Of a stretch of DNA of 64,000 bases, positions 1,900 through 43,678 are shown piece by piece. Source of the stretch: a virus; UHGV virus genome UHGV-0134778; one strand, given 5' to 3'. Position numbers and translations under genes: made by a program. The notes below the pieces were generated by a model. The model made no database searches. It saw nothing but the letters and a program-made list of their open reading frames with translations, and was not told the DNA's origin. The first letter of the stretch is position 1; each line of letters opens with the position of its first letter.

Positions 1900-4211
1900 T
1901 CACCAAGGTAATTAAAAGCAACGGATGTGAAGTGGCATTCGATCCAGAACGTTTAAATAAGGCGGCTATTTTCGGTGACGACGGTAACGGCAATTGGTCA
2001 CATATTGCACTGGATGCATACAAGCGGCTGTATGATGGATGTACAACCAAAGAAGTTAACCAAGCTATTATAGACTCTTGTGTTAGCCGTAAAGACGAAG
2101 CACATTCCCGTATGGCTGGTCGTGTTCTTATTGGTCAGATTTATAAAGAGGCTTTTGGAGGGTTTACAAAGATCCCTTCCTTACCATCATTTTACAATAC
2201 CATGGTTGAGAAAGGGTATTGGGAGGATATGGGTTATAGCTTTACCGAGCTAAACACTTTAGACGCTGTTATTGACCACAGTAAAGATCTCGGTTATGGC
2301 TATGCAGTCCTTAAACAGTTTCGAGACAAATACGGGATCAAGGATACTCTTAAAGACACCCTGTTCGAATCTCCACAGATGATGTTTATGGGGATAGCGA
2401 TGGCTGTCATGAAAAATATGCCGAAAGAACGCCGTATTGACGATGTTGTAAAATTATACACTTATCTGTCAGACTTAAAGATCAATGCCCCGACACCGTA
2501 CTTAAACGGGCTGCGCACAGGCAAGACAGGGTATGCATCTTGTTGTGTAATAAAAGCTGACGATACAGCAAAATCTATTGGTGTGGCACGTGAAGTTGCA
2601 TACACAATGACGGTTAACCAAGCAGGTATTGGCTACTATTTATCATCAAGATCTGCAGGTGATGGTGTTCGTGGTAACACTATTAAACATATGGGCAAGA
2701 TTCCATATTATCGAGGTATTGATGCTGGGGTTAAGGAGAACAGACAACAATCACGTGGCGGTTCTGCAACAGTATCATTCCTTGCACTGGACCCGCAGAT
2801 TGATGAGCTAATCCGTTTGAGAAACCCTATGACTGTTGCTTCAAAAAGAATCAACACCATGGACTACTCTATAGGTATTAATAGGTCGTTTATCAACCGT
2901 GTGGCTAAAAATTTAGATTGGATGCTTGTTTCTTATAAGCACGCGCCTCAACTGCATGAAGGTATCTTCACCATGTCTATGGAGGAGTTTGATGCCGAGG
3001 TTGATCGTATCGCTAAAGATGACAGTATTCCTAAAACATGGATCCGAGCTAGAGATCTTGCTGTTGAGCTGATCACGCAGCGCACCGAGGTTGGAAGGTT
3101 GTACGTATACTGGACAGATGAGATGAATAGACATACACCTTTTAAAGATGTGATCTATTCAAGTAACCTGTGTGCAGAAATAGCCCTCCCGACAAAAGGC
3201 TATTCAGATATGCGTAATATCTTCAAGTACGATGTTGATGATGGCGAAGTTGCATTGTGCTTCCTGTCATCTCTTGTAGCTGGAAGGGTTACCCCAGAGG
3301 AGTATGAGGATGTTGCATACTACACGGTGCTTATGATTGACAATGTTATGGAAATCATGACATATCCGTATGAAAATATGGAGAGCACTGTTAAAAAACG
3401 CAGATCCATCGGGGTTGGCCTTACCAATGTTGCACATTTTATTGCCAGCCACAAGGTTGCTTACGGGTCTCCTGAAAGTAAACAGCTTGTTCACGATCTT
3501 GCAGAGCTCCACAGCTACAGCTTGCATAAGGCAAGTTTACGATTGGCAAAAGAGCGGGGTGTCTGTGAGTGGATGCATAAAACAAAATACCCGGAGGGTT
3601 GGTTACCAATCGACACTTATAACAAAGAGGTCGATAGTGTGGTGAAAGATCCTTCTCTTAAGCAGGATTGGGAAGGGTTACGTAAAGAAATCATTGAAAA
3701 TGGTGGGCTACGTAATAGCGTTCTTGAAGCATATATGCCTAATGAAAGCTCTTCGCTGGCAACAAACACCACTAACGGGGTTTATCCTGTCCGTGAGCAC
3801 ATTATCTTTAAAAAGTCGCCACAAGGGCAGGTGCTGTTTATCGTTCCTGAATATGATGAACTGAAAGAGTATTATACCTCGGCTTGGGACGTTGATACTA
3901 ACGACATGATTGATATGTATGCTGTGATTCAAAAATTCACAGGACAGGCAATTAGTGCTGACCTATATATTGATTACACCAAGTTGAAAGATGGTAAAAT
4001 TTCAATGAAGGAGCAGCTGGGGTATCTTATCCGTGCTACTAAATTCGGGATGAAGACATGGTATTACTTAAACTCTCGGGTTGGTGCTGGTGACTCTTTG
4101 ACAGAGGAGCTCCACGCGAAGAAACAGGCTGAAGATGAAACCAGAAAGAACTATCCTTTGATTGCAGATAGTTCAGTTGAAGATCCATATTGCGAAAGTT
4201 GTGCACTGTAA
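1896..4211 (+). CDS. nrdA: ribonucleoside-diphosphate reductase large subunit, class I (771 aa)
   Basis: N-terminal ATP-cone (VIKSNGCEVAFDPERLNKA), NLCAEIALPT active-site motif, C-terminal CESC pair; TTG start with GGAGGA RBS. Confidence 0.9.
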   Translation: MITKVIKSNGCEVAFDPERLNKAAIFGDDGNGNWSHIALDAYKRLYDGCTTKEVNQAIIDSCVSRKDEAHSRMAGRVLIGQIYKEAFGGFTKIPSLPSFYNTMVEKGYWEDMGYSFTELNTLDAVIDHSKDLGYGYAVLKQFRDKYGIKDTLKDTLFESPQMMFMGIAMAVMKNMPKERRIDDVVKLYTYLSDLKINAPTPYLNGLRTGKTGYASCCVIKADDTAKSIGVAREVAYTMTVNQAGIGYYLSSRSAGDGVRGNTIKHMGKIPYYRGIDAGVKENRQQSRGGSATVSFLALDPQIDELIRLRNPMTVASKRINTMDYSIGINRSFINRVAKNLDWMLVSYKHAPQLHEGIFTMSMEEFDAEVDRIAKDDSIPKTWIRARDLAVELITQRTEVGRLYVYWTDEMNRHTPFKDVIYSSNLCAEIALPTKGYSDMRNIFKYDVDDGEVALCFLSSLVAGRVTPEEYEDVAYYTVLMIDNVMEIMTYPYENMESTVKKRRSIGVGLTNVAHFIASHKVAYGSPESKQLVHDLAELHSYSLHKASLRLAKERGVCEWMHKTKYPEGWLPIDTYNKEVDSVVKDPSLKQDWEGLRKEIIENGGLRNSVLEAYMPNESSSLATNTTNGVYPVREHIIFKKSPQGQVLFIVPEYDELKEYYTSAWDVDTNDMIDMYAVIQKFTGQAISADLYIDYTKLKDGKISMKEQLGYLIRATKFGMKTWYYLNSRVGAGDSLTEELHAKKQAEDETRKNYPLIADSSVEDPYCESCAL

Positions 4212-15591: not shown

Positions 15592-15939
15592 ATGTCAAAG
15601 ATTAAATCGATATTAATGTGGGTGGCTGTTGTAGCTTTTGTAGGATACTGGACTTGGGAAACTGAATTAAAAGATATTGGGTATACCAGTCTTGAGAGTA
15701 AGGCGTGCATTGGCATAACCGATGCATTCAGGCAGAATGCTATGGATCACGAATGTGTCGATGCAGATATAGATGAGAAACTGTCTAAGGACAAAGATTT
15801 TTACCATGGTCATGCCTTGCTTGATAGTGGTGATACTGTAGAATTCTGGTCGTGGTTCCGTGAAGATGGGACAATAAAGACAGCAGTAAAGATTTCCAAC
15901 AAAGAGTTGATGCTGTTGCAGCAGAAGGAGGTGCAATGA
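15592..15939 (+). CDS. hypothetical protein with N-terminal transmembrane segment (115 aa)
   Basis: N-terminal hydrophobic helix ILMWVAVVAFVGYW; AGAGGTAGAGAG RBS. Confidence 0.5.
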   Translation: MSKIKSILMWVAVVAFVGYWTWETELKDIGYTSLESKACIGITDAFRQNAMDHECVDADIDEKLSKDKDFYHGHALLDSGDTVEFWSWFREDGTIKTAVKISNKELMLLQQKEVQ

Positions 15940-16205
15940 TCTGGATATCCTACGCTGATGGCACCATGCTGTATACTGCAGGTACTAGATATGAAGTTAA
16001 GGAGGACGATAAAAAATTTATCGTAAAAACATTTGACAAGGACGACAACCTTTTGCTAGAATTGACTTACAAGGTTGGGGATGTATCTAGCATCCAATTG
16101 GATTGCGGTCATAAAGATAACCCGCTCAAGAAACCTGGGGTAGGTAAAGCTTCAGAAGAACGCCTGTCTCGTATTGCAGAAAGCGTTTCTGCACAAAAAA
16201 TCTAA
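15936..16205 (+). CDS. hypothetical protein (89 aa)
   Basis: Overlapping start/stop with previous gene. Confidence 0.5.
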   Translation: MIWISYADGTMLYTAGTRYEVKEDDKKFIVKTFDKDDNLLLELTYKVGDVSSIQLDCGHKDNPLKKPGVGKASEERLSRIAESVSAQKI

Positions 16206-16220
16206 AAAGGGGACTAGAAA

Positions 16221-16415
16221 ATGAAAAACTTACATTTTAACACTTATTACTACAACACTTTGAATGATTTGTATTATATTGTTCGAAGTAAAAATCCTGA
16301 AACAGTCCTATTCTGCCGCGAACCTTTCAAAGGAGAGGAAGTGGAGTCTGAGATGAATGTTAGCCAGATTACCTCTTTGTTGCTCTCAGGTGCAATGGAA
16401 GAAGCAATATTCTAA
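16221..16415 (+). CDS. hypothetical protein (64 aa)
   Basis: Co-oriented packed ORF. Confidence 0.45.
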   Translation: MKNLHFNTYYYNTLNDLYYIVRSKNPETVLFCREPFKGEEVESEMNVSQITSLLLSGAMEEAIF

Positions 16416-16433
16416 ACCAGGCGGGAGGGTTTT

Positions 16434-16622
16434 ATGAAGCACTATTGTCTGTCTGGTAGGATGGGGGTGGATTGTGATTGGGTTTTCTTAAAACTTGTCA
16501 GCGTTCGAGAGTCCATCCCAGAGGAAGAGCAAGAAAGCGAGCTGATGTCATGGATCAACCATTACGGTAACACTTTTCGGCATGTTAAGGTAGAAGAGTT
16601 GCCAAGCGAGGCTGAATTATGA
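16434..16622 (+). CDS. hypothetical protein (62 aa)
   Basis: Co-oriented packed ORF. Confidence 0.45.
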   Translation: MKHYCLSGRMGVDCDWVFLKLVSVRESIPEEEQESELMSWINHYGNTFRHVKVEELPSEAEL

Positions 16623-16915
16623 AACTTTTTGAGTGGTTTAAAAAGTTTAAATATAAAGCTGTAGCCATCGTGCCGTGGTCCATTCAGTGGGTTGATGAAG
16701 GTGGTCTACCGATACCTGGTGACAAAGATACTGGGTACTGGATTATGATGGAGAACGGGTTTGGAAAGCGAAAGTATACGTGCACAAACTCTACTCGATC
16801 TGCACTTAATAGAGTGCCTGGTTACAAACTTATGGTTGTGTGGAAAATGTCAGGCGTGCCTCCAGCCAATGCTCAATTTCTTACTGACAATCCGACCACG
16901 GTAGAGGGAGATTGA
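16619..16915 (+). CDS. hypothetical protein (98 aa)
   Basis: ATGA overlap with previous gene. Confidence 0.5.
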   Translation: MKLFEWFKKFKYKAVAIVPWSIQWVDEGGLPIPGDKDTGYWIMMENGFGKRKYTCTNSTRSALNRVPGYKLMVVWKMSGVPPANAQFLTDNPTTVEGD

Positions 16916-17199
16916 TAATGAAAAAGATTAACAGTAGTGAAGTAGAGTTTAAACTTGTCGGAAAAGGCACTTACTGGGAAGTTCGTCAAAAGGTATATTT
17001 GTTCGGTCTTATTCCCTACTGGTCTAAATTCTACTGGGGAGCTAACGAGTTGGGAAGATACGCCACCAAATCAATGGCACTTATTGGTATAGCAGAGTAC
17101 ATTGCAGCCCGAGACAGGGTTGGAACCACTTATTACTACACTGCTGACGATATTCGTAACAGTGTTTACGTCCCACAACCACCTGATGGAGACCGTTGA
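16912..17199 (+). CDS. hypothetical protein (95 aa)
   Basis: ATGA overlap with previous gene. Confidence 0.5.
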   Translation: MIMKKINSSEVEFKLVGKGTYWEVRQKVYLFGLIPYWSKFYWGANELGRYATKSMALIGIAEYIAARDRVGTTYYYTADDIRNSVYVPQPPDGDR

Positions 17200-17423
17200 T
17201 GAAAGTTAAAGTTTTAGATTCAAGCTTCTATATTGGTCAGGAGCCTTTAGTAGGAAAAGTGTTTACTGCTGTCCCTAACGAAGATTACCCTGACCTTTTA
17301 AAAATAAAAGGAGCAGATCTTATTGCCGCTGGTGCATCTCAGGAATGCTTTGACAGTCAGTGGACCTATAACTTTGCCCTAGGTGAGGATGTAGAGGTAG
17401 TGGAGGACGATCATGAAGGTTAA
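17196..17423 (+). CDS. hypothetical small acidic protein, 'VEVVEE-tail' paralog
   Basis: MMKVKVLDS...GADLIAAGA...EDVEVVEDDHEG. Confidence 0.6.
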   Translation: MMKVKVLDSSFYIGQEPLVGKVFTAVPNEDYPDLLKIKGADLIAAGASQECFDSQWTYNFALGEDVEVVEDDHEG

Positions 17424-17667
17424 AATTCTTGATTCTAACGTCTACTTGGGACAATCCTTCCTGAATGGAAAGGTCGTTCCTGCGGTATACTTTGAAGGGT
17501 TGCCGTGGGATGATCCTGTGCGGCAACATCACAGTTATGTAGGCCACAACGTGGTGTTTATCTTGGGATCAGACCTGATCACCGCTGGTGCACCTGAATA
17601 TTATTTCGGGGAAGAGTCCTACTATGCCTTTGGGGTAGGGTCAGATGCAGATATTGTAGAGCTGTGA
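17413..17667 (+). CDS. hypothetical small acidic protein, 'VEVVEE-tail' paralog
   Basis: MKVKILDSNVYLGQ...SDLITAGAP...SDADIVEL. Confidence 0.6.
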   Translation: MKVKILDSNVYLGQSFLNGKVVPAVYFEGLPWDDPVRQHHSYVGHNVVFILGSDLITAGAPEYYFGEESYYAFGVGSDADIVEL

Positions 17668-17679
17668 TGGGTAACCGTT

Positions 17680-18078
17680 GTGAAAAATAAACTGTTTAAA
17701 GTTACAATGAAAATTCGCGGAGCTTGGAGCGTAAAGCAAGGGCGCATCCCAGAGTTTGAGAAAGACTTCTACGTAGTCTCCACCTCTGAAGAGGCTGCAT
17801 GCTGGCAGGCTGGATATGCCTATGCAAGAACCTGGTACGAAGGATACCAGACTGGAGGCTATGACGGAGAAATTGTCAGCAAGGGTGTGGAAGAAATTAA
17901 TGTGTTGACAAGTGAAAAAGTTTTTGTTATAGTGCATCCTGATTCTAGAGTGAAGCATTACTGGAATGCCAGAACAAAAACCTGGACACCGTTTGCAGAT
18001 TCTGCTACACCGCTTTTAAACCAGAAAGCTCTTGACTCTGCCCCAAGCTATGGGGTTGTTGAAGAAAAGATAAGCTGA
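17680..18078 (+). CDS. hypothetical protein (132 aa), paralog of 19887..20282
   Basis: Shared pattern HPxS...YW...WTP...L with 19887..20282. Confidence 0.6.
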   Translation: MKNKLFKVTMKIRGAWSVKQGRIPEFEKDFYVVSTSEEAACWQAGYAYARTWYEGYQTGGYDGEIVSKGVEEINVLTSEKVFVIVHPDSRVKHYWNARTKTWTPFADSATPLLNQKALDSAPSYGVVEEKIS

Positions 18079-18095
18079 AATAGTGGGGTACTTAC

Positions 18096-18386
18096 ATGAT
18101 GGATTTAGTTTTGGACACTGATAACACCGAATCGTTTAAAAAAGATGGTGTAATAAGCATGGACCAACCCTGCCATGCCAAGATTGACTCAAAATGGACC
18201 TACAAGTTTGACGGTGAGATCTTCGCAAATGATGAGAAGGTCGTGGATGCTGTAGCCATTTTAAACGCTTTAGGGTATGACCCTGTGAACTCATTGATCA
18301 AGGATCCTGTTGAGTTTGCAGAGTATGTTCGTAAAATGGCAGATCTTGCAGTAGATATTTTAAAAACTATCGACGACAAGCTGTAA
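18096..18386 (+). CDS. hypothetical protein (96 aa)
   Basis: Co-oriented ORF. Confidence 0.5.
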   Translation: MMDLVLDTDNTESFKKDGVISMDQPCHAKIDSKWTYKFDGEIFANDEKVVDAVAILNALGYDPVNSLIKDPVEFAEYVRKMADLAVDILKTIDDKL

Positions 18387-18392
18387 AAACTG

Positions 18393-18421
18393 TTGACACA
18401 ACACTTGATCTTTAGTATCAT
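18393..18421 (+). promoter_or_regulatory. sigma70-like promoter upstream of hpf
   Basis: TTGACA 18393-18398, 17-nt spacer, TATCAT 18416-18421; followed by stem-loop AGAGGG-TTTGGTT-CCCTCT. Confidence 0.55.
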
Positions 18422-18468
18422 TATTTTCAAAGAGGGTTTGGTTCCCTCTTCTTTAAAAGGAGCACGTT

Positions 18469-18786
18469 ATGCAGATTGAAATCACTGGCAACGTAGAGAT
18501 CACTGAAGGTATGGTGTCTTTCATTTCCCACAAAATGTCCAAACTGGAGCGTTTGCACCCATCTGCCAACTATGCACGTGTGAGTGTAAAAGTTGAAAAT
18601 GATCACCAGGAAGTTATGGCTTTTATTTTTGACAATTCTGGGAAAGAAGTTATCGCCAAAGCTAAAGGTAGCGATGCTTACGAGGCAACTGACCGTATGG
18701 TGGATGTTGCAGCACGCCAGTTGGCTAAATGCGGTGGAAAGAAAGGTAAGGGAAAAGGTAAAGTAAAGATTGACTTTTTAGATTAA
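18469..18786 (+). CDS. hpf: ribosome hibernation promoting factor / ribosome-associated inhibitor homolog (105 aa)
   Basis: Close match by eye to bacterial HPF/YfiA: MQIEITGNVEITEGM...KLERL...VSVKVEN...AKAKGSDAYEATDRMVDVAARQLAK. Confidence 0.7.
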   Translation: MQIEITGNVEITEGMVSFISHKMSKLERLHPSANYARVSVKVENDHQEVMAFIFDNSGKEVIAKAKGSDAYEATDRMVDVAARQLAKCGGKKGKGKGKVKIDFLD

Positions 18787-23733: not shown

Positions 23734-24063
23734 TAAACACACATGCATCTGAAGAGACATCCAAAGGAGTGACTATATGTCCCTTGGCTGAGCCAGTGAA
23801 AGAGGAAAACTTAGATTCTGAAGATTCTCCATCTTCGCTCCAGGTAGATCCTGAGGCTGATGACCTAACGTGGGAAGACATCGTAGACATCTGGTTCTCC
23901 ATTATGCCTGAGCACGAAGAGTTCAGAGGTGGCAGACTATGAAGCACCGAGCCCACACAGGTTCCTCATGCTAAAGCATGGCCTGAAGAGGCAAACGTGC
24001 ATAATTCCTGTGCATTGGAACGTATAAAACCCTGTTCACACTCTCATTTCTAGAGGAGATTTC

Positions 24064-24279
24064 ATGAAGATAGAAATATTTGGTGGAGCTGACAACACTT
24101 GTGGCCTGATTTACCTCGAATTCGATGAATCGTACCTGCCAGAAGTGTTAAACATGGATTCTGTTGCTGAGGCTTTGGGAGTAAGTCCTAAAGATCTCTA
24201 CTCTGGTGCTGAGATTGATGGTTGGGAGGAGACCATGAACATCGATTTCAGTGAAGTAGGTGATGAACCGCTGGACTGA
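24064..24279 (+). CDS. hypothetical acidic protein (71 aa), last plus-strand gene of block
   Basis: AGAGGAGA RBS upstream. Confidence 0.5.
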   Translation: MKIEIFGGADNTCGLIYLEFDESYLPEVLNMDSVAEALGVSPKDLYSGAEIDGWEETMNIDFSEVGDEPLD

Positions 24280-25802
24280 CACACAATTAGTTGCCCGGCT
24301 AAAGTGCTGGAAGCACCCATAACATCTTCCAACTAAATTTCCTACCAACACAGTTACTTACCCACCACACATGACTGTTTGCTTGTTTAGTGAGCAGTCA
24401 TCCCTTGACATTCTTGCCTATCTTGATAAAATTAAGTTCTTCTCTTTTCTTTTACCGAGTAATTCGGGTTTTCTGTTCTCTTCGGTTTGAAGGGGTATGG
24501 AGATACACCTGAGTGAACAGGGTGAACAACCGAACCTTTAGCTATGGCATTAGCATGGCGAAGCGGACGGGTGACGAAAGAGGGGCCGGAGGACACCAGT
24601 CACTGCCATATAGTATATGGGTGATAACCTGAAGAGTCTGAATAAGTGTTTAAGTACCAGTCAGAGGAAAAGGTGAATGGTAGCCGAAGGGGGAGGGGGG
24701 TTTCTTATATCTTTAATTTGTATACTTTATATACACTTGTAAACCAATTCAATTAGGATCTGTTTACCACACAAAGTGGATGGAGACAAATATCACCTAT
24801 TAAACTTGAATTATTTATAGAAAATACCACAACACTACTTAAGTCTTTGATTTTACACACAAATCCTACAGATACTCACCCTCCATATTTAACATACTTG
24901 TAACATATCCCATACTCTACCTGTCTGATCAATTTACCCAACTACATCCCCATATTTTTCCTGTCTGTACTACCCCTGCCCCGCCGGGAGTCCCGTCATA
25001 TCTGGCTTCCCAGCAAATATCACACCCACAAATATCATTGCCTGAAGAGGGTTTCATCCCATAATACACACCTTGCCTGAAGAGCGATTCATACACCAAC
25101 TAAATTTTTTAATTGACCCCTCCCCGCCGCCGGAGAGGTTGGCTTTTCCCACACAGGCCTGAAGAGTCAGCCAGAAATATCTGAACAGGCCCAGTTATAC
25201 CACGATTTTGACATGACCGACAGGAGTGCTACCCTGTCAGGAGCCGGTAGCGACTGGAGTGCTGCCAGGCGGACGAAATGGGAATACTTCTCATTCTTAT
25301 AACAATTCTCAAATATCGAGGCAGTGAGGCAAATTAATAGGTGAGGCCGTTCACACAGTGGCACAACATTTGCAACCTATCTTGTGGGGTGAATGAGAAT
25401 ACCTATCATTGTGAGAATAGTTATCATTACGGGCAATTTAACATAATACCCATTATGCGCACCACTGGCGATACATACAGGGATTGATAACATGGGTTAC
25501 TGTTTACGCACATAACAATTATATTTCTTACTATTTGTGCGGGATATAGTTAGCAACCAATAGATTAGATATTGACCTGCGGACTTCTGACCGTCCAGAC
25601 GTCTAAACGCCCACACAACAAGGGTTATACATACATTCCTGAATGTAAACAGGGCCGCAAAAATGCTACCATACCAGTTTGTAAATTTTTCATGCAGCAC
25701 TTGACAAAGAGGAGAAAAACTTGTCTGACACTTTTGCCACTTTTGACACTTTTACCTTTGACACAATATGACACAATAACGGCTGTTACTATTCCATATC
25801 TC

Positions 25803-25858
25803 ACTGTTTACGCATAGACTGTTTACGCCTGAATAGTTTACGCCCAAACTGTTTACAC
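25803..25858 (+). repeat. four tandem iteron-like repeats ACTGTTTACGC
   Basis: ACTGTTTACGC at 25803 and 25818, AGTTTACGC at 25835, ACTGTTTACAC at 25848; further copies near 25508 and 26322. Confidence 0.7.
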
Positions 25859-25869
25859 AGAGATGATGA

Positions 25870-26163
25870 GCCATGCCATTCGTTTGCATGAAAACAATTA
25901 ACAAGATAACAATTAACAAGTTAATAATCTTTCGCTGGCTATGCCAGGTGACTAGGTCACCCCTTCGGGCGTTTATATGACATAATATAAAAGCAGGGCA
26001 ACTATTAGAAGATCTATAGTTGCCTTGCTTGTTATGTCATGATTAACTAAATACAAGGCAACTATGATCTGAGTAATAGATTGCAGAAAAACTATCACGG
26101 GGGTGATGGTTACTGCTTTTATATTATGTCGCGACTCCGTCGCGCCATGCCATTCGTTTGCAT
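25870..26163. repeat. composite element: 20-bp direct repeats flanking 18-bp inverted repeats and GGCAACTAT hairpins
   Basis: DR GCCATGCCATTCGTTTGCAT at 25870 and 26144; IR GACATAATATAAAAGCAG (25979-25996) vs CTGCTTTTATATTATGTC (26113-26130); GGCAACTAT/ATAGTTGCC four times; palindromes GGTGACTAGGTCACC and GCGACTCCGTCGC. Confidence 0.7.
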
Positions 26164-26780
26164 AGTTGCCTTATTGTTACAGGTAAAATAATTACATTAT
26201 TAATTATTTCTTATCTTTCTCTTAGTCATCTAATGATTCCAGTCAGTATAGTAATGTACAGTAAACATTAGACGACTAAAGATTTCTCTGTTTATGATAA
26301 CTCATCGTGATAATTTCGGGCTGTTTACGAAAAATGTTGACACCTGAGCTGATTTATGTTATGCAGTCTACACGAATAATTATTTTATGCAGGTATTGAC
26401 TATTCCGTTATTCTGTGGTTGGAATAAATACTTTGCAGGCTATAGAATGGCGTGCGTACGTGAATTCTGAGATCTGGCGGCTATAGTTATACTCGATTTT
26501 TCGCGTAGAACACGCTTTAGATGCTGTGTAAGTGTATGACTTATAAAGATTTTTAGTTGTTGACAAGATATTGGAGATGTGCATCAGGTTAAAATTTGTG
26601 CAATAGCGGCATTACGTGCACTTTTGGGAGAGAAAACGGGTAAAAATGGACTTGCTACCACACAATGAAAAATTATGCAATAGTTATTTTCCATGTATAT
26701 TTGTACAGTATGTGGGATTGATGGCTAGTCAATTATTCCACTTGCCAGGTAGGGCCGTTTATGGTAGGAGAAGAGCAGAC

Positions 26781-26805
26781 AAAAAGAAAGGGGCCTAAGC
26801 CCCTT
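26781..26805 (-). terminator. intrinsic terminator ending the minus-strand block
   Basis: On minus strand AAGGGGC-TTAG-GCCCCTT hairpin followed by TCTTTTT. Confidence 0.6.
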
Positions 26806-38409: not shown

Positions 38410-38641
38410 CCTCCTTTGGGAGCTCTAACTCTGGCATAGCCATATACGCCACAACAGGGTTGTAATCAAAGTAGAAATGACCGTTAATTATCCCAGTTTT
38501 GTGGGCATAGTCACCAGATCCCGCAAGAACAATTTCGCAAACTCCGAAATCCACCTTGCCACTCTCATCTGCCATGGCTACAATATACTTTCCTAGAGGC
38601 ATGTTTTTAACGCCGTCTACAAATGTCCACCCTTTGTTCAT
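38396..38641 (-). CDS. hypothetical protein (81 aa)
   Basis: Co-oriented ORF. Confidence 0.5.
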   Translation of the reverse strand: MNKGWTFVDGVKNMPLGKYIVAMADESGKVDFGVCEIVLAGSGDYAHKTGIINGHFYFDYNPVVAYMAMPELELPKEGADV

Positions 38642-38661
38642 ACTTTATCTCCTGCACTTTC

Positions 38662-38994
38662 TTAAGGTAACCAGTAAACAATCTCGCCCTTCAGCTTCAT
38701 GTCGTTTCCAACATAGATTTCCCAGCCATCCATCTTAGCAACTGTAGGCCCAAAGTCATCCGCACCCCTTACCTCTTTCCAGGCTCCGTAGTCAGGTTGC
38801 CAGATATAGAATCCACCTTCTTTGTCCCATGCTCCGTACACTACGTTTAACAGGTTTCCCATTGCAACAATGGTGGGCCGTGGGAATAATACATCTACAG
38901 ATGCGCCACAATTTCGGGTATCTTTTAAGTTGCAATCCCAAAAGATGTCTGCCAGTGTGGCGGCGATAGCTTTACGTCTTTCTAATGTTACCAT
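38662..38994 (-). CDS. hypothetical protein (110 aa)
   Basis: Co-oriented ORF. Confidence 0.5.
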   Translation of the reverse strand: MVTLERRKAIAATLADIFWDCNLKDTRNCGASVDVLFPRPTIVAMGNLLNVVYGAWDKEGGFYIWQPDYGAWKEVRGADDFGPTVAKMDGWEIYVGNDMKLKGEIVYWLP

Positions 38995-39004
38995 AGCACA
39001 ATAC

Positions 39005-39196
39005 TCACTTGTTGTTAAGAAGTTCTAATGCTTTCTGTTTTACTTTATCAAGATCTGTTGATTCAAAAACTGTGCGATATCCCCAACTTTGCCCATAGGA
39101 GTAACTGCAATCTCCGTAACACCATTGCTCAATTTGATAGTATTCAAGGAATGGGTGCTGTCTAACTATGATACCGTCTCGATTAAAAATTACCAT
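39005..39196 (-). CDS. hypothetical protein (63 aa)
   Basis: Co-oriented ORF. Confidence 0.45.
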   Translation of the reverse strand: MVIFNRDGIIVRQHPFLEYYQIEQWCYGDCSYSYGQSWGYRTVFESTDLDKVKQKALELLNNK

Positions 39197-39259
39197 AATG
39201 TATCCCTCTCTGCTGGTTTATGTTTGTATTATACACCGCAGTTTTCAGATGTCAATCTT

Positions 39260-39511
39260 TTACAGGTTACTCCAGTATAATCGGCATTTACATTTTGGGC
39301 AATGAGGTTCTTTTATGTAATAGCCGTCAGTCTTTGGAACACTTTTTGGTGCAGTTTTAAGATTGTACCGAGTAAAACACCGGAAGCATGTTACCTCTCC
39401 GACCTGTTGATCGTTGATCCACTCACCAGAGTAAAGCTCTTTCTTGTTTCTCATAATTATCTCTCCAATCCTCTGCAATCTTCTACCAGAATCTCCAGCC
39501 AGAAAGCACAC
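39260..39511 (-). CDS. hypothetical Cys-rich protein, possible zinc finger (83 aa)
   Basis: CFRC...CPKCKC cysteine pairs. Confidence 0.45.
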   Translation of the reverse strand: MCFLAGDSGRRLQRIGEIIMRNKKELYSGEWINDQQVGEVTCFRCFTRYNLKTAPKSVPKTDGYYIKEPHCPKCKCRLYWSNL

Positions 39512-39705
39512 GGGAACACTTTGAGGATTGAATCTTTACTCGGTTCGGAAGTTCTTTTTCCATAGGGCAGGTAGAAATACCCTCCTGCAGATTCAAACAT
39601 GGCTCCTTCTGTTGTATCTATCACAGCTAGAATTAAGATTTTAGTCTCCATAGTGTTCCCCTGTCTTAGTCATTGTGGTGACTATACCACCTCAAACTCC
39701 GGCTG

Positions 39706-40164
39706 TCAACACTCTTTGTACTCCACCACGATAATATCTATATCAAAAGTGGCAAGGTTAATAACGTCCTCCACGTGTCCCCACTTCAAGCCGCCTATGC
39801 CGCACCCAATCTTAGGTATGTAGAATGGTAAAGTCGATCTCTTGAATATCTCATTTACTCGCTCAAAGCCTTTCAGAATTGAGAAATACTCAGCATTAGG
39901 TCCTGGGTAGAACTGAGTGTATAGATTGATTCCGTATACAATACCTTTCGGAGATAAGTGCTCCCACCGAGAGAACGCTCCTAGCTTACTTAGGCAACCG
40001 TAGGTAGTCGTTTTGTCAGCCGCCAATGCTTGAGGGAACTCACGGGAAATTTGTTTTGCTACACCCTTACCCATTGTGTGGAAGCAGTTACAACCGTGGA
40101 TCAGGTGACCAGCACCGCTCTTAAAAAGGGAGATTAGATCTCCCTCTACAGTATCAATAATCAC
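39706..40164 (-). CDS. macro-domain (ADP-ribose-binding/processing)-like protein (about 152 aa)
   Basis: Macro-like motifs GDLISLF, HGCNCFHTMGKGVAKQI, IPKIGCGIGGLKW; likely GTG start at 40164 with GAGGAG RBS (track ORF extends to 40263). Confidence 0.45.
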   Translation of the reverse strand: MIIDTVEGDLISLFKSGAGHLIHGCNCFHTMGKGVAKQISREFPQALAADKTTTYGCLSKLGAFSRWEHLSPKGIVYGINLYTQFYPGPNAEYFSILKGFERVNEIFKRSTLPFYIPKIGCGIGGLKWGHVEDVINLATFDIDIIVVEYKEC

Positions 40165-40579
40165 GATATGCCAGCTCCTCTTCCACAATTTCAAAAAACT
40201 CAGTCCAGCACTGTGGCATATTAGAGTTACCGAAGTGGCTTTCATAGTAAAGGTTCTCACCACTCGGAAGATAGAAATCTGTTACCTCGTAGAATCCACA
40301 ATCGTCGCACTCACCTTCTTCAAACTTGGCCTCAACCTTAATACCGAGGAAGGTGAAAAGTTTATGAATATCTTCAGTTTCGAACTCCCAGTGAATGTTG
40401 TTTTCCGCATCGGTGTAGAACTGGATCAGCAGACCATTGTCCAGTTTACCAAAATACTCTGTGAAGTAACTCCCTTCCCAGAAATCTTTATGACAAATAA
40501 TATCCATGCGTTTGCCCATAATAATGGTGTGAGCGTTTTGGGCATCGTCACGAATCAGTTTTGGCATTTCATAGATCAT
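40154..40579 (-). CDS. hypothetical acidic protein (141 aa)
   Basis: GGAGAACTAAG RBS before ATG at 40579. Confidence 0.55.
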   Translation of the reverse strand: MIYEMPKLIRDDAQNAHTIIMGKRMDIICHKDFWEGSYFTEYFGKLDNGLLIQFYTDAENNIHWEFETEDIHKLFTFLGIKVEAKFEEGECDDCGFYEVTDFYLPSGENLYYESHFGNSNMPQCWTEFFEIVEEELAYRDY

Positions 40580-40647
40580 CTTAGTTCTCCGGGTTCAACA
40601 GGTGGTGGCGCTATAGGAAGATCATAAAACATGGCGATCACATTCTC

Positions 40648-40845
40648 TTACGCAGGAATTGCTTCAAACAGGCCGTTATCGATACCATCCTTCAAGTAAA
40701 GATTATACTCTATGTCAGTATCTGTGTAAAGGGCAGCATCTAGCATTCTATCTGTGAGTCCATCCATTGGGTGGAGAAACCACCACCCACGCCAGTCAAA
40801 GTAACAACCTGGTGCATCTTCTCTCACACGGATTCGATAAATCAT
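40648..40845 (-). CDS. hypothetical protein (65 aa)
   Basis: Co-oriented ORF. Confidence 0.45.
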   Translation of the reverse strand: MIYRIRVREDAPGCYFDWRGWWFLHPMDGLTDRMLDAALYTDTDIEYNLYLKDGIDNGLFEAIPA

Positions 40846-40941
40846 GGGCAGTGGCCTCCTGTTAGTTACACATCCCAGTTTTCTTCGTTCATCACATCCT
40901 CCAGCTCTACAAGGTTATAATTGCACACCTTCCAACCAGTG

Positions 40942-41358
40942 TCAACAGAAAACTTCAACAAATTCTTCCACAGTTTTAATGTCGTGGGAAAAAGGTTTGC
41001 GGCTATAACGGGCAATAGCACTGTCAACCACCTCCCGGTACTCCAAATCTCCAGAATATTTCATGAAGCATTGCAGAGTCTCCGGACAGATAGCCAGATA
41101 GCTCCACCACCCCTCTTCGGATTGGTAGTCAAATCCCATGCTCTCCAGCCACGAAGCGTATACACCTGCACCTTCCAGCCAGTGAGTATTTTCATCAAGG
41201 AACTTGTTAACAGTCATGTGAGCTTCTAAGCATTTATCCAGCTCTTTTCCGTTAACCAGCCACGCACTGACAGTGGCACATCCAAGGTCCACAGATTGAG
41301 TTGATAAATTGTATTGATCATAGTTCTCAGGTTTAACAATGATATCTTCTAATGTCAT
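40942..41358 (-). CDS. hypothetical protein (138 aa)
   Basis: AAAGAGG RBS directly after terminator. Confidence 0.55.
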   Translation of the reverse strand: MTLEDIIVKPENYDQYNLSTQSVDLGCATVSAWLVNGKELDKCLEAHMTVNKFLDENTHWLEGAGVYASWLESMGFDYQSEEGWWSYLAICPETLQCFMKYSGDLEYREVVDSAIARYSRKPFSHDIKTVEEFVEVFC

Positions 41359-41371
41359 TTTTCAGGCCTCT

Positions 41372-41405
41372 TTATACAAAAATGCCCCACCCTTTCGGGC
41401 AGGGC
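41372..41405 (-). terminator. intrinsic terminator after SSB-like gene
   Basis: Minus strand GCCCTGCC-CGAAAG-GGTGGGGC hairpin followed by ATTTTTGTAT; identical hairpin at 51530-51551. Confidence 0.6.
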
Positions 41406-41420
41406 TATGTTAACTAGATG

Positions 41421-42647
41421 TTAAAAAGGGATGTCATCATCAAAGGTGTACTGTGCCGGATTCTGATCCATCGGGTCGTCTTCCCCATCATCTACAGGAG
41501 GAGCGTCTACAGTGTTTTGCTGTGGAGAGGCTTCCTGTTTGGCAGCTTGAGGTTCTTGATGGTCAGTGGTCCCAGCACCGTTCTTGATCCAATCATACAA
41601 CGGTTCAGCAAGATTAGTCAAGACATCTTTTGCCTCTGCAGTAATTGCTACTGCAAAATCATCAACTTTCGTTTTCTTGTCAATACGGCGACAAGCGTTC
41701 AATACCGCATTACCAACACTGGCACCTACTTCATCTTCAGTTCGGTTGGTGGCTTGAGCGTACTCTTTCTTAAGCTCGATGGTGACCACGTGCAGTGTTT
41801 TAGCCACATCTAAAGGGCTGTCAATCTTAAACCCGCGATCCAGGATGATCTGCAATGCATTGATACTGTGCCCTGTCTCTACACCGATGGGGTCGTAAGA
41901 GGATTTACGCTTACCACCAGAACCTTGTGTACCGTTCTCTGCTTTAGGCGGGTAGGCCTTGAAGCCGCTGATAATATTCCCGGTATCTTTGTCAACAATA
42001 GCCGCAACACGACCGCCAACCACCAGGTCTTTAAGCTGCTCATCGGAGACAACCATAGCACCTTCGCCAATCTTGTGGTCATTGACAGTAACCACGTTAC
42101 CAACAATCTGAGTCACATCACCATAGATGCGTAAAACGTCCTGATTGGCATTCTGCTGAGGTTTCTGCTTCTGGCCTTGTGATTGTGTGCCTTGTTGCTG
42201 TTTTTGTTGCTGTGGAGCTGCTGGAGCCTCTCCTGCCCCCAGCTTAACCATTTTAGCCAATGAGCCTTTGTAGTAGGTCTTACCGTTATGCTCATTTGCC
42301 TTTAAAGGGATATTTACGATCCATCCTGGCGTTACTGTTTCCCACTTGTCATCAATTTTAACAGAGACGGAATCTTGATGACCTGGTTTGAGCAATTTAT
42401 CACCCATGCTGATCCAAACTTCTTCACCACCTTGGAGTAGGTTATCAGAAGAATCCAGCTCAGAAATCAGTAAAGAGATGGTGTGGCTGGACTCAATTTT
42501 CTTACCTTGCCACACAGTGGTTTTAATACCTGTTGTGGGATCAGCACCTTTGATTGGCTTGATGCTGACACGTTTAATCATACCGTGAGCCAGTAAAACA
42601 GTTTCACGAGGATTCATCGGGTTGGCAAATTGTTGAATAACGCTCAT
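41421..42647 (-). CDS. putative single-stranded DNA-binding protein with SSB-type acidic C-terminal tail (about 408 aa)
   Basis: C-terminus ends DDDIPF (bacterial SSB tip); Q-rich linker; start set at ATG 42647 (GGAGACAAAT RBS); track's 457-aa N-terminus overlaps the upstream gene. Confidence 0.45.
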   Translation of the reverse strand: MSVIQQFANPMNPRETVLLAHGMIKRVSIKPIKGADPTTGIKTTVWQGKKIESSHTISLLISELDSSDNLLQGGEEVWISMGDKLLKPGHQDSVSVKIDDKWETVTPGWIVNIPLKANEHNGKTYYKGSLAKMVKLGAGEAPAAPQQQKQQQGTQSQGQKQKPQQNANQDVLRIYGDVTQIVGNVVTVNDHKIGEGAMVVSDEQLKDLVVGGRVAAIVDKDTGNIISGFKAYPPKAENGTQGSGGKRKSSYDPIGVETGHSINALQIILDRGFKIDSPLDVAKTLHVVTIELKKEYAQATNRTEDEVGASVGNAVLNACRRIDKKTKVDDFAVAITAEAKDVLTNLAEPLYDWIKNGAGTTDHQEPQAAKQEASPQQNTVDAPPVDDGEDDPMDQNPAQYTFDDDIPF

Positions 42648-43057
42648 TATTTGTCTCCTTGTTCTTCGTTGGTGTTTGCTGTGTGTGCAAACCCTGCTTG
42701 AATTAATTTGTCCTGCACTTGAGCCAACAGGCCCATTGCAAAACTTGTCGTCCCAGAAAGGGCCATTAGCATATCTCGTTGCTGAGCTACCCAACCTAAG
42801 GCATAATCCAAACGACGATATTTTTCTTCTTCGCGCAGAGCCTGGAATAACTGTTCAGCCTCTGGTTGTTGTGTGAGCTCCTGAAGTCTCCCCATGAAAG
42901 AAGAAAGTACCAGCAGAAGAGACACTTGATCTTTGCTTAACCCTAAGAAAAATTCTTGAGGTTGTTCTTGCTCGTTCATCGCAACCGACGTTTGATCGTT
43001 CATTTGTTCCATTGTGGAATCTCCGATTTTATTTGAACAACATAAAGGAGACACCAT
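42647..43057 (-). CDS. hypothetical protein (136 aa)
   Basis: Stop overlaps SSB-like start. Confidence 0.55.
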   Translation of the reverse strand: MVSPLCCSNKIGDSTMEQMNDQTSVAMNEQEQPQEFFLGLSKDQVSLLLVLSSFMGRLQELTQQPEAEQLFQALREEEKYRRLDYALGWVAQQRDMLMALSGTTSFAMGLLAQVQDKLIQAGFAHTANTNEEQGDK

Positions 43058-43094
43058 TTTAGCATCTCCTTCTGTAAATTACAACAGGTATTTG

Positions 43095-43340
43095 TTAGCC
43101 AATTACTTCGAAAGTACCCCAACTCCCGTTCAGCAGGCAGGTGATCGGATCACCATCATCGTCAATTATTTCAAAGTTTTCAACATCCAGAATATGGTCA
43201 TCGAACACAATACTTTCGTCACCACCACCAGAAACAACAGTGTATTCCTTACCTTGAGTCAAGTTTTGACACCCTTTGCCACCAAAACCTACTTCAACAC
43301 AACGTACTTTCTGTCCTGCGCGAGCAACTACTTCAGCCAT
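43095..43340 (-). CDS. hypothetical acidic protein (81 aa)
   Basis: Co-oriented ORF. Confidence 0.5.
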   Translation of the reverse strand: MAEVVARAGQKVRCVEVGFGGKGCQNLTQGKEYTVVSGGGDESIVFDDHILDVENFEIIDDDGDPITCLLNGSWGTFEVIG

Positions 43341-43357
43341 CTTAAGGTCTCCTGATA

Positions 43358-43678
43358 TTAATCGTCAAGTTCAAAATAGATTTTAACAGCTTCATCAAAG
43401 ATTGGAATCCCGATGTTGTTGATAAGCTGCCAAACTACCATATCTTTTCCTGGATCTGGGAGAATGTCAACCTTTCTCCATGCGCTGTATATCCAGTTCG
43501 GACCGCCTTCTGCACTAACTGGTAGATTTTCACCAGCTTCCTGTAGATACTTATACAGCAAAAGATATTCTGGGTACTCTAGAACACTATCTTCTGTAGT
43601 ATACAGCAGTTCACGGTATACTTTCAAGAATCCTGTTGGGTTGATGTTTTCAGTCTTCATTTGCTGCTTCTCCTGCAT
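43358..43678 (-). CDS. hypothetical protein (106 aa)
   Basis: Co-oriented ORF. Confidence 0.5.
   Translation of the reverse strand: MQEKQQMKTENINPTGFLKVYRELLYTTEDSVLEYPEYLLLYKYLQEAGENLPVSAEGGPNWIYSAWRKVDILPDPGKDMVVWQLINNIGIPIFDEAVKIYFELDD

Follow-up and report, generated by a model that had tools for sequence, protein, structure and literature searches.

A stand-alone macrodomain protein of an rV5-like Escherichia coli phage is related to T4 Tk.4 (AdfM) and may erase DarT2 marks from phage DNA

We asked what is encoded by a short minus-strand gene within a 64,000-nucleotide stretch of the virus genome UHGV-0134778 (hereafter the window), and what it could do for the phage. A preliminary description had read it as a macro-domain-like protein, a candidate for reversing ADP-ribosylation-based host defence, whose GTG start overlaps the upstream gene. 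The window belongs to an rV5-like E. coli myovirus (Vequintavirus), and phages YN3, HMD-6, ECP26 and about 115 more match the 2.5-kb stretch around the gene at 92-97% identity. Sixteen near-identical records bear the name Campylobacter phage, yet their genomes are those of an rV5-like E. coli phage. Comparison with four relatives gave a dN/dS of 0.09-0.15, indicating purifying selection on the gene, and tblastn identified homologues in 2812 phage records. Based on these two results, we concluded that the gene is not a chance open reading frame.

The start codon was then to be chosen among three positions in the same frame (Table 1). The mechanical open reading frame extends upstream to 40263, the annotation of the close relative NHEP1 starts at the equivalent of an in-frame ATG at 40245, which is 81 nt above the GTG and gives a 540-nt CDS, and the GTG-equivalent start (459 nt, 152 aa) is annotated in three records, HMD-6, Bas50 and slur16. 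We found that the GTG, the GAGGAG and the overlap are identical in the window and these three phages, and that the GTG is also present in NHEP1. Homologues of other phage families begin at the aligned position, with MIVKYIKGD in T4, MIIDTVKGD in Krischvirus and a general MI[IV] pattern. Moreover, the alignment shows few substitutions ahead of the GTG; all are non-synonymous in the macro frame, while half of them are synonymous in the frame of the upstream gene. No Shine-Dalgarno sequence was found before the ATG at 40245. The GTG start is favoured for these reasons, and the longer ATG start of the NHEP1 annotation was rejected.

The stop of the upstream gene (TGA, 40156-40154) lies inside the macro gene, which itself ends at TGA 39708-39706, and the two genes share 11 nt (GTGATTATTGA). 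The G of the GTG is located 8 nt before the T of the upstream stop, and 5 nt separate the two codons. The 7 nt given for this distance in the preliminary description reflects a difference in counting; the overlap it reported stands, as do the in-frame GTG at 40164 and its GAGGAG, both of which are seen in the sequence and conserved in relatives. Because of the 11-nt overlap, the two genes are probably co-transcribed, and the arrangement is consistent with translational coupling of the macro gene to the upstream gene. We considered whether the upstream 141-aa protein could be a detached DarT-binding domain of DarG or a known defence or anti-defence protein, and rejected both since it had no PADLOC or Pfam match.

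Table 1. Positions of the macrodomain gene, its functional codons and the neighbouring signals in the window
Feature	Position	Strand	Remark
Macrodomain gene, T4 tk.4/adfM homologue	39706..40164	minus	152 codons + TGA; profile, fold, homology, dN/dS
GTG start codon	40162..40164	minus	conserved in five vequintaviruses; annotated start in HMD-6, Bas50, slur16
GAGGAG Shine-Dalgarno-like sequence	40175..40180	minus	10 nt before GTG; inside 3' end of upstream gene; invariant in four phages
Upstream 141-aa gene, PHROG 8157, function not assigned	40154..40579	minus	last 11 nt overlap macro gene
First ADP-ribose-binding loop, codons H23-A36 (HGCNCFHTMGKGVA)	40057..40098	minus	invariant G24, N26, G34, A36
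Codon N26	40087-40089	minus	aligns with DarG N22 and SCO6735 N27
Codon Q84 (CAG) in NLYTQF	39913..39915	minus	invariant in 47 homologues; alignments
Second, diphosphate-binding glycine loop, codons I116-W127 (IPKIGCGIGGLKW)	39784..39819	minus	P117, G120, G122 invariant
Sigma-70-like promoter match, TTTACA-17-TATAAT, 11/12	40702..40730	minus	about 120 nt upstream of 141-aa gene; consensus match only
Sigma-70-like promoter match, TTGACA-17-TATAGT with TG, 11/12	39681..39709	minus	-35 hexamer contains macro stop; consensus match only
Sigma-70 consensus promoter match, perfect 12/12, TTGACA-16-TATAAT	39228-39255	minus	consensus match

Profile searches identified the protein as a macrodomain. The Pfam Macro model (PF01661) matched at 26.6 bits, above its gathering score of 22, with the alignment restricted to residues 22-53, and PHROG 335 ('phosphatase') matched end to end with an E value of 2e-58. 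DarG was the sole model of the defence library matched by the window protein, with 45.9 bits for the NCBIfam model and 48.8 bits for the PADLOC model over residues 5-147; T4 Tk.4 scored 36 bits against the latter. The best solved structures by sequence were DarG macrodomains, SCO6735, Poa1p, BT1257 and TARG1. The AlphaFold model, built on 47 homologues, had a pLDDT of 96.4 and a pTM of 0.91 and showed a three-layer alpha/beta/alpha macro fold. A Foldseek search with this model returned TARG1, the DarG of T. aquaticus and M. tuberculosis, Poa1p, a DarTG complex and SCO6735 at the top, with TM scores of 0.69-0.79 (0.75-0.79 for TARG1 and DarG). The probability was 1.00 for TARG1, DarG, Poa1p, SCO6735 and viral macrodomains, with viral MacroD-type domains ranking lower. 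On the basis of this ranking, the predicted fold places the window protein in the TARG1/DarG/Poa1p-like (ALC1-like) class and not in the MacroD class. The macro-domain-like assignment of the preliminary description was thus borne out by both the profiles and the predicted structure, and two refinements can be added to it, namely this class and a glutamine at the position of the catalytic lysine.

When the 47 homologues were aligned, G24, N26, G34, A36, N80, Q84, P117, G120 and G122 were invariant. The motifs quoted earlier as ADP-ribose-binding loops (GDL, HGCNCFHTMGKGVAKQI and IPKIGCGIGGLKW) are all present in the translation, and both glycine-rich loops, MGKGVA and IGCGIGG in the window protein, have invariant positions in the homologue family (G34, A36, G120 and G122), which agrees with that reading. 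The catalytic lysine of DarG is absent, and the invariant Q84 occupies its column; this column holds the catalytic lysine of DarG (K80), TARG1 (K84) and PhiKZ AdfM (K78), and Gln85 of SCO6735. The activity of SCO6735 requires both Gln85 and Asn27; this enzyme is efficient at clearing DNA of thymidine-linked ADP-ribose, and it counteracts DarT in E. coli, rescuing the cells (PMC9411070). Since a Gln/Asn site is active on thymidine-linked ADP-ribose in SCO6735, the lysine-less site of the window protein is compatible with the same activity.

With the gene, its start, its conservation, its fold, class and family relationship, and its active-site residues established here, we infer the substrate and a putative anti-DarTG2 role from its relatives. 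The closest characterised one is T4 Tk.4 (NP_049723), which is 39% identical over the full length (122 bits, E 4e-41) and carries the motifs HGCNCFHTMG and NLYTQF in identical form. The window protein is also 64% identical to the product of the Krischvirus MIZ5 gene at the vs-tk.4-tk position; this synteny was found in T4 and Krischvirus only, and the window gene lies outside such a cluster. Compared with T4 Tk.4, all homologues of the vequintavirus group scored 99-132 bits; with Adpp of Vibrio phage Gary, their scores were 58-75 bits. In T4, a transposon screen picked out tk.4 alone as becoming essential on a DarTG2 host; a clean knockout confirmed that its deletion sensitises the phage to DarTG2, and the gene was renamed adfM, for anti-DarT factor Macrodomain (bioRxiv 10.1101/2025.11.20.689424). 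This evidence is genetic and comes from a preprint, and the anti-DarTG2 phenotype has been demonstrated in T4 only (10.1101/2025.11.20.689424). Another paper on tk.4 deals with sRNA binding and not with function. The earlier suggestion that such a protein could reverse an ADP-ribosylation-based host defence therefore has experimental backing for the T4 homologue against DarTG2.

Since the window protein is a clear relative of T4 Tk.4/AdfM, we consider a role as DNA eraser the most likely one: by analogy, it is somewhat probable that the protein is an AdfM-like, lysine-independent eraser of DarT2-made ADP-ribose on phage DNA, through which DarTG2 would be defeated. In this scheme, the protein would be made early, together with the upstream gene product, from host-type promoters, and would bind the ADP-ribose that the host toxin DarT2 places on thymidines of single-stranded phage DNA. 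It would then hydrolyse the bond between ribose and base, so that replication could continue, and would in effect act as an orphan DarG2 antitoxin. Catalysis may proceed independently of lysine as in SCO6735, with N26 holding Q84 and Q84 positioning the distal ribose for attack by water. Two properties of the protein count against this role: the long, lysine-bearing mobile loop with which SCO6735 holds DNA has a short counterpart here, and the protein is roughly neutral, with a pI of 6.9. The surroundings of the gene, where no vs gene is adjacent as it is in T4, count against it as well.

The genomic surroundings were examined for expression signals and partners. Read in the direction of transcription, the macro gene follows a replication module (family-A DNA polymerase, DnaB-like primase-helicase, methylases, PIF1-like helicase and rII-like genes) at a distance of about 5.7 kb, and it is part of a long run of small minus-strand genes without assigned function. 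In 38500-43500, sigma-70-like matches occurred about twice as often as they did in shuffled sequence. The match upstream of the 141-aa gene is a candidate for the early promoter of the two-gene unit, and the one overlapping the macro stop would drive the next small genes. Such consensus matches fit early transcription of the two-gene unit by the host polymerase. Among the ten nearest neighbours, the Pfam and PADLOC searches revealed nothing informative except a zinc-binding domain (Pfam Phage_zn_bind_2, E 8e-23) in the 64-aa protein encoded at 39263-39454 (minus strand), two genes downstream of the macro gene, which was the sole neighbour with a domain. PADLOC gave no match for any of the ten and identified no darT.

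Two further regions of the window drew our attention. The minus-strand gene at 41424-42647, three genes upstream of the macro gene, encodes a 408-aa protein of PHROG 4477 without a Pfam match. It contains a linker rich in Gln and Pro, and its last residues, FDDDIPF, are the motif at the C-terminal tip of SSB in E. coli; the protein may serve the phage in binding single-stranded DNA, or may mimic the tail through which SSB interacts. At 24000-26800, plus- and minus-strand gene blocks meet in a strand switch with no open reading frame above 81 aa. This region carries 15-nt tandem iteron-like repeats (GTTTACGC plus 7 nt) at 25806-25856, a cluster of inverted AAGCAGGGCAACTAT copies at 25979-26179, and a 20-nt direct repeat whose copies at 25870 and 26144 match exactly. 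It may be an origin of replication or a control region. In the vequintavirus Bas54, an intergenic region of about 2 kb between oppositely transcribed genes tolerates no transposon insertions (HIDEN-SEQ preprint), and it is probably the counterpart of 24000-26800.

The main rival to the AdfM-like eraser is a Poa1p/Adpp-like phosphatase, which would convert the ADPR-1''-phosphate produced by RES-type NAD+ phosphorylase defences (aRES) to ADP-ribose; we regard it as rather unlikely. Its appeal comes from Poa1p being among the best sequence and fold matches, from the name 'phosphatase' used by PHROG 335 and several GenBank records, and from the 33% identity (69 bits, E 2e-20) to Adpp of Vibrio phage Gary, which shares the loop motifs and the glutamine. 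H23 of Poa1p is presumably conserved as H23 here, with the numbering of the Poa1p sequence checked against the PDB mutants H23A and S30A. Gary Adpp is KNV71_gp137, encoded between Adps and Namat; it is 35% identical to T4 Tk.4 and has the HxCNC, Y-x-Q and IGCG motifs in common with the window protein. This Poa1p-like macrodomain dephosphorylates ADPR-1''-phosphate in vitro, which lets NARP1 rebuild NAD+ after aRES attack (bioRxiv 10.64898/2026.01.28.702374). Because a proven phosphatase shares these motifs, the active-site residues do not separate anti-DarT from phosphatase activity, and activity of the window protein on ADPR-1''-phosphate in vitro is plausible. Similarity and gene context, however, do set the two proteins apart as far as the sequences can tell. 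The window protein is nearer to T4 Tk.4 than to Adpp (122 versus 69 bits), and Adpp functions only within the Adps-Adpp-Namat operon (10.64898/2026.01.28.702374). With Gary Adps and Namat as tblastn queries, neither the window nor the close relative NHEP1, searched over its complete genome, yielded a homologue (all E > 0.8), and the full annotation of NHEP1 lists no gene for these NARP1 partners. Dephosphorylation of ADPR-1''-phosphate alone would not restore NAD+ without NARP1, which disfavours the phosphatase role. Furthermore, a macro gene occurs in about 15% of 859 NARP1 operons (10.64898/2026.01.28.702374); compared with homologues in 2812 phage records, this means that most homologues are stand-alone, outside NARP1 operons. 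In Vibrio phage VPMCC14, an Adpp-like macro gene between Adps and Namat (3501-3979 of its record) is split over three frames, either as a frameshifted pseudogene or through a sequencing error. T4-type RNA ligase repair leaves no 2'-phosphate, and neither Appr>p nor Appr-1''-p would arise; a Poa1p-like role in tRNA splicing was rejected for this reason.

It is unlikely, too, that the window protein erases another ADP-ribose conjugate in place of the DarT2 mark, be it protein or RNA mono-ADP-ribosylated by transferases of a host defence or of a phage, or the O-acetyl-ADP-ribose that the phage's own Sir2-like enzyme would make. TARG1 and SCO6735, of the same class, act on proteins as well, and the label O-acetyl-ADP-ribose deacetylase appears on one relative in GenBank and on several entries from metagenomes. 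NHEP1, a close relative, has a gene for a Sir2-like protein (17141-17821 of its record), and this phage Sir2-like enzyme and the distant macrodomain could be functionally linked; but the gene is about 50 kb off and outside the window. In NHEP1, an Rnl1-like RNA ligase, the Sir2-like NAD-dependent protein and a nucleotide pyrophosphohydrolase lie side by side at 15769-18549, about 12 kb before the position corresponding to the window start. T4 has Tk.4 but is not known to have a Sir2 gene, which we count against such a substrate. The Lys84/Asp125 dyad used by TARG1 for protein substrates is also missing, with Q84 and a glycine in the two places, and no ADP-ribosyltransferase was found adjacent to the macro gene when its neighbours were compared with PHROG, PADLOC and Pfam. 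That the protein only binds ADP-ribose, for instance as a sponge for ADP-ribose-derived immune signals, is very improbable. Macrodomains can be pure binders and the DarG/TARG1 lysine is missing here, but the invariant Q84 and N26 match the residues that SCO6735 needs for catalysis, Gary Adpp is enzymatically active with these residues, and the T4 phenotype involves a DNA-modifying toxin and not a signalling system. A broader and more speculative proposal is that the Gln-type stand-alone phage macrodomains (T4 Tk.4, the window protein and those in over 2000 phage records) differ in mechanism from DarG and PhiKZ AdfM and make up a lineage of their own, lysine-independent and with broader substrates, in which one small early protein erases DarT2 marks on DNA as well as ADPR-1''-phosphate or other conjugates. 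We hold this to be doubtful; if true, such macrodomains would counter more than one NAD+-based defence.

In a neighbour-joining tree, the Gln-type group (phage Tk.4-like proteins, Adpp and SCO6735) was separated from DarG and PhiKZ AdfM with 87.5% bootstrap support, and the window protein grouped with Bas50 and slur16 (100%), beside the Krischvirus genes (85%). The deep phage branches had bootstraps of 10-57%, leaving Adpp unplaced inside or outside the Tk.4-like clade. We rejected orthology with PhiKZ AdfM, which is barely similar to the window protein (BLASTP E value of 1e-3 over 20 residues) and has lysine where the window protein has glutamine. The two proteins named AdfM, T4 Tk.4 and PhiKZ gp104, differ in the same residue and belong to different lineages; the one name spans macrodomains with an active-site Gln and with an active-site Lys. 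A homologue on a 648-kb contig was checked for a bacterial darT beside it; none was found there, and the contig looks viral, with small genes of no assigned function and ankyrin repeats.

These results do not amount to new biology. Close GenBank relatives are already labelled "macro domain protein" or "phosphatase", and the role of the family has been published for T4, so the window protein adds no new kind. Their interest lies in the phages concerned: vequintaviruses, E. coli phages with a broad host range, are under consideration for therapy, and most of their early genes have no assigned function. Assignment to the AdfM/Tk.4 family predicts natural resistance of vequintaviruses to DarTG2. 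Separately, Bas60-62, classed as Vequintavirinae, carry a NADAR-type AdfN against DarTG1. As Adpp shares the Gln-type site, motifs alone do not distinguish anti-DarT erasers from phosphatases of NAD+ salvage, and telling these macrodomains of phages apart takes gene context and biochemistry; together with the two lineages behind the name AdfM, this is the point of wider interest.

Among the known systems, human TARG1/OARD1 (PDB 4J5R) is the best structural match (TM 0.78). With the TARG1 sequence checked by its K84/D125 numbering, the Lys84/Asp125 dyad would correspond to Gln/Gly in the window protein, and a Ser would stand at N26. The macrodomain of DarG2 (PDB 5M31, 5M3I) and PhiKZ gp104 AdfM have the same fold, class and glycine loops, and N22 of DarG and N23 of PhiKZ AdfM correspond to N26 here, but both use a catalytic lysine (K80 and K78) where the window protein has glutamine. 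Both remove DarT2 marks from DNA, and PhiKZ AdfM does so in vitro and protects the phage (PMC13309987). In DarG, a domain that binds DarT follows at the C-terminus and the gene lies next to darT, neither of which holds for the window gene; the window protein spans positions 3-143 of the 338-position NCBIfam DarG model, and its 45.9 bits are far under the cutoff of 250. SCO6735 of Streptomyces coelicolor (PDB 5E3B) shares the class, the fold, the Gln in place of the catalytic Lys and the supporting Asn. It is, however, a bacterial housekeeping gene product only about 27% identical to the phage protein in the multiple alignment, with a longer mobile loop (QHGMKTGSKGAP) bearing Lys89 and Lys94 for DNA binding, where the window protein has the short QFYPGPN, and with Val25, whose proposed role is through its backbone, in place of Gly24. 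Adpp has a loop 7 residues longer after the Gln, and HQCNCFCR where the window protein has HGCNCFHT. T4 Tk.4 has IGAGIGKG against IGCGIGGL, and lies in the context vs-tk.4-tk.3, whereas the window gene has no adjacent vs and both its neighbours belong to PHROG families of no assigned function. Like the window protein, T4 Tk.4 is a stand-alone macrodomain of the same size with the same Asn/Gln pair, and its gene, too, overlaps the stop codon of the gene before it.
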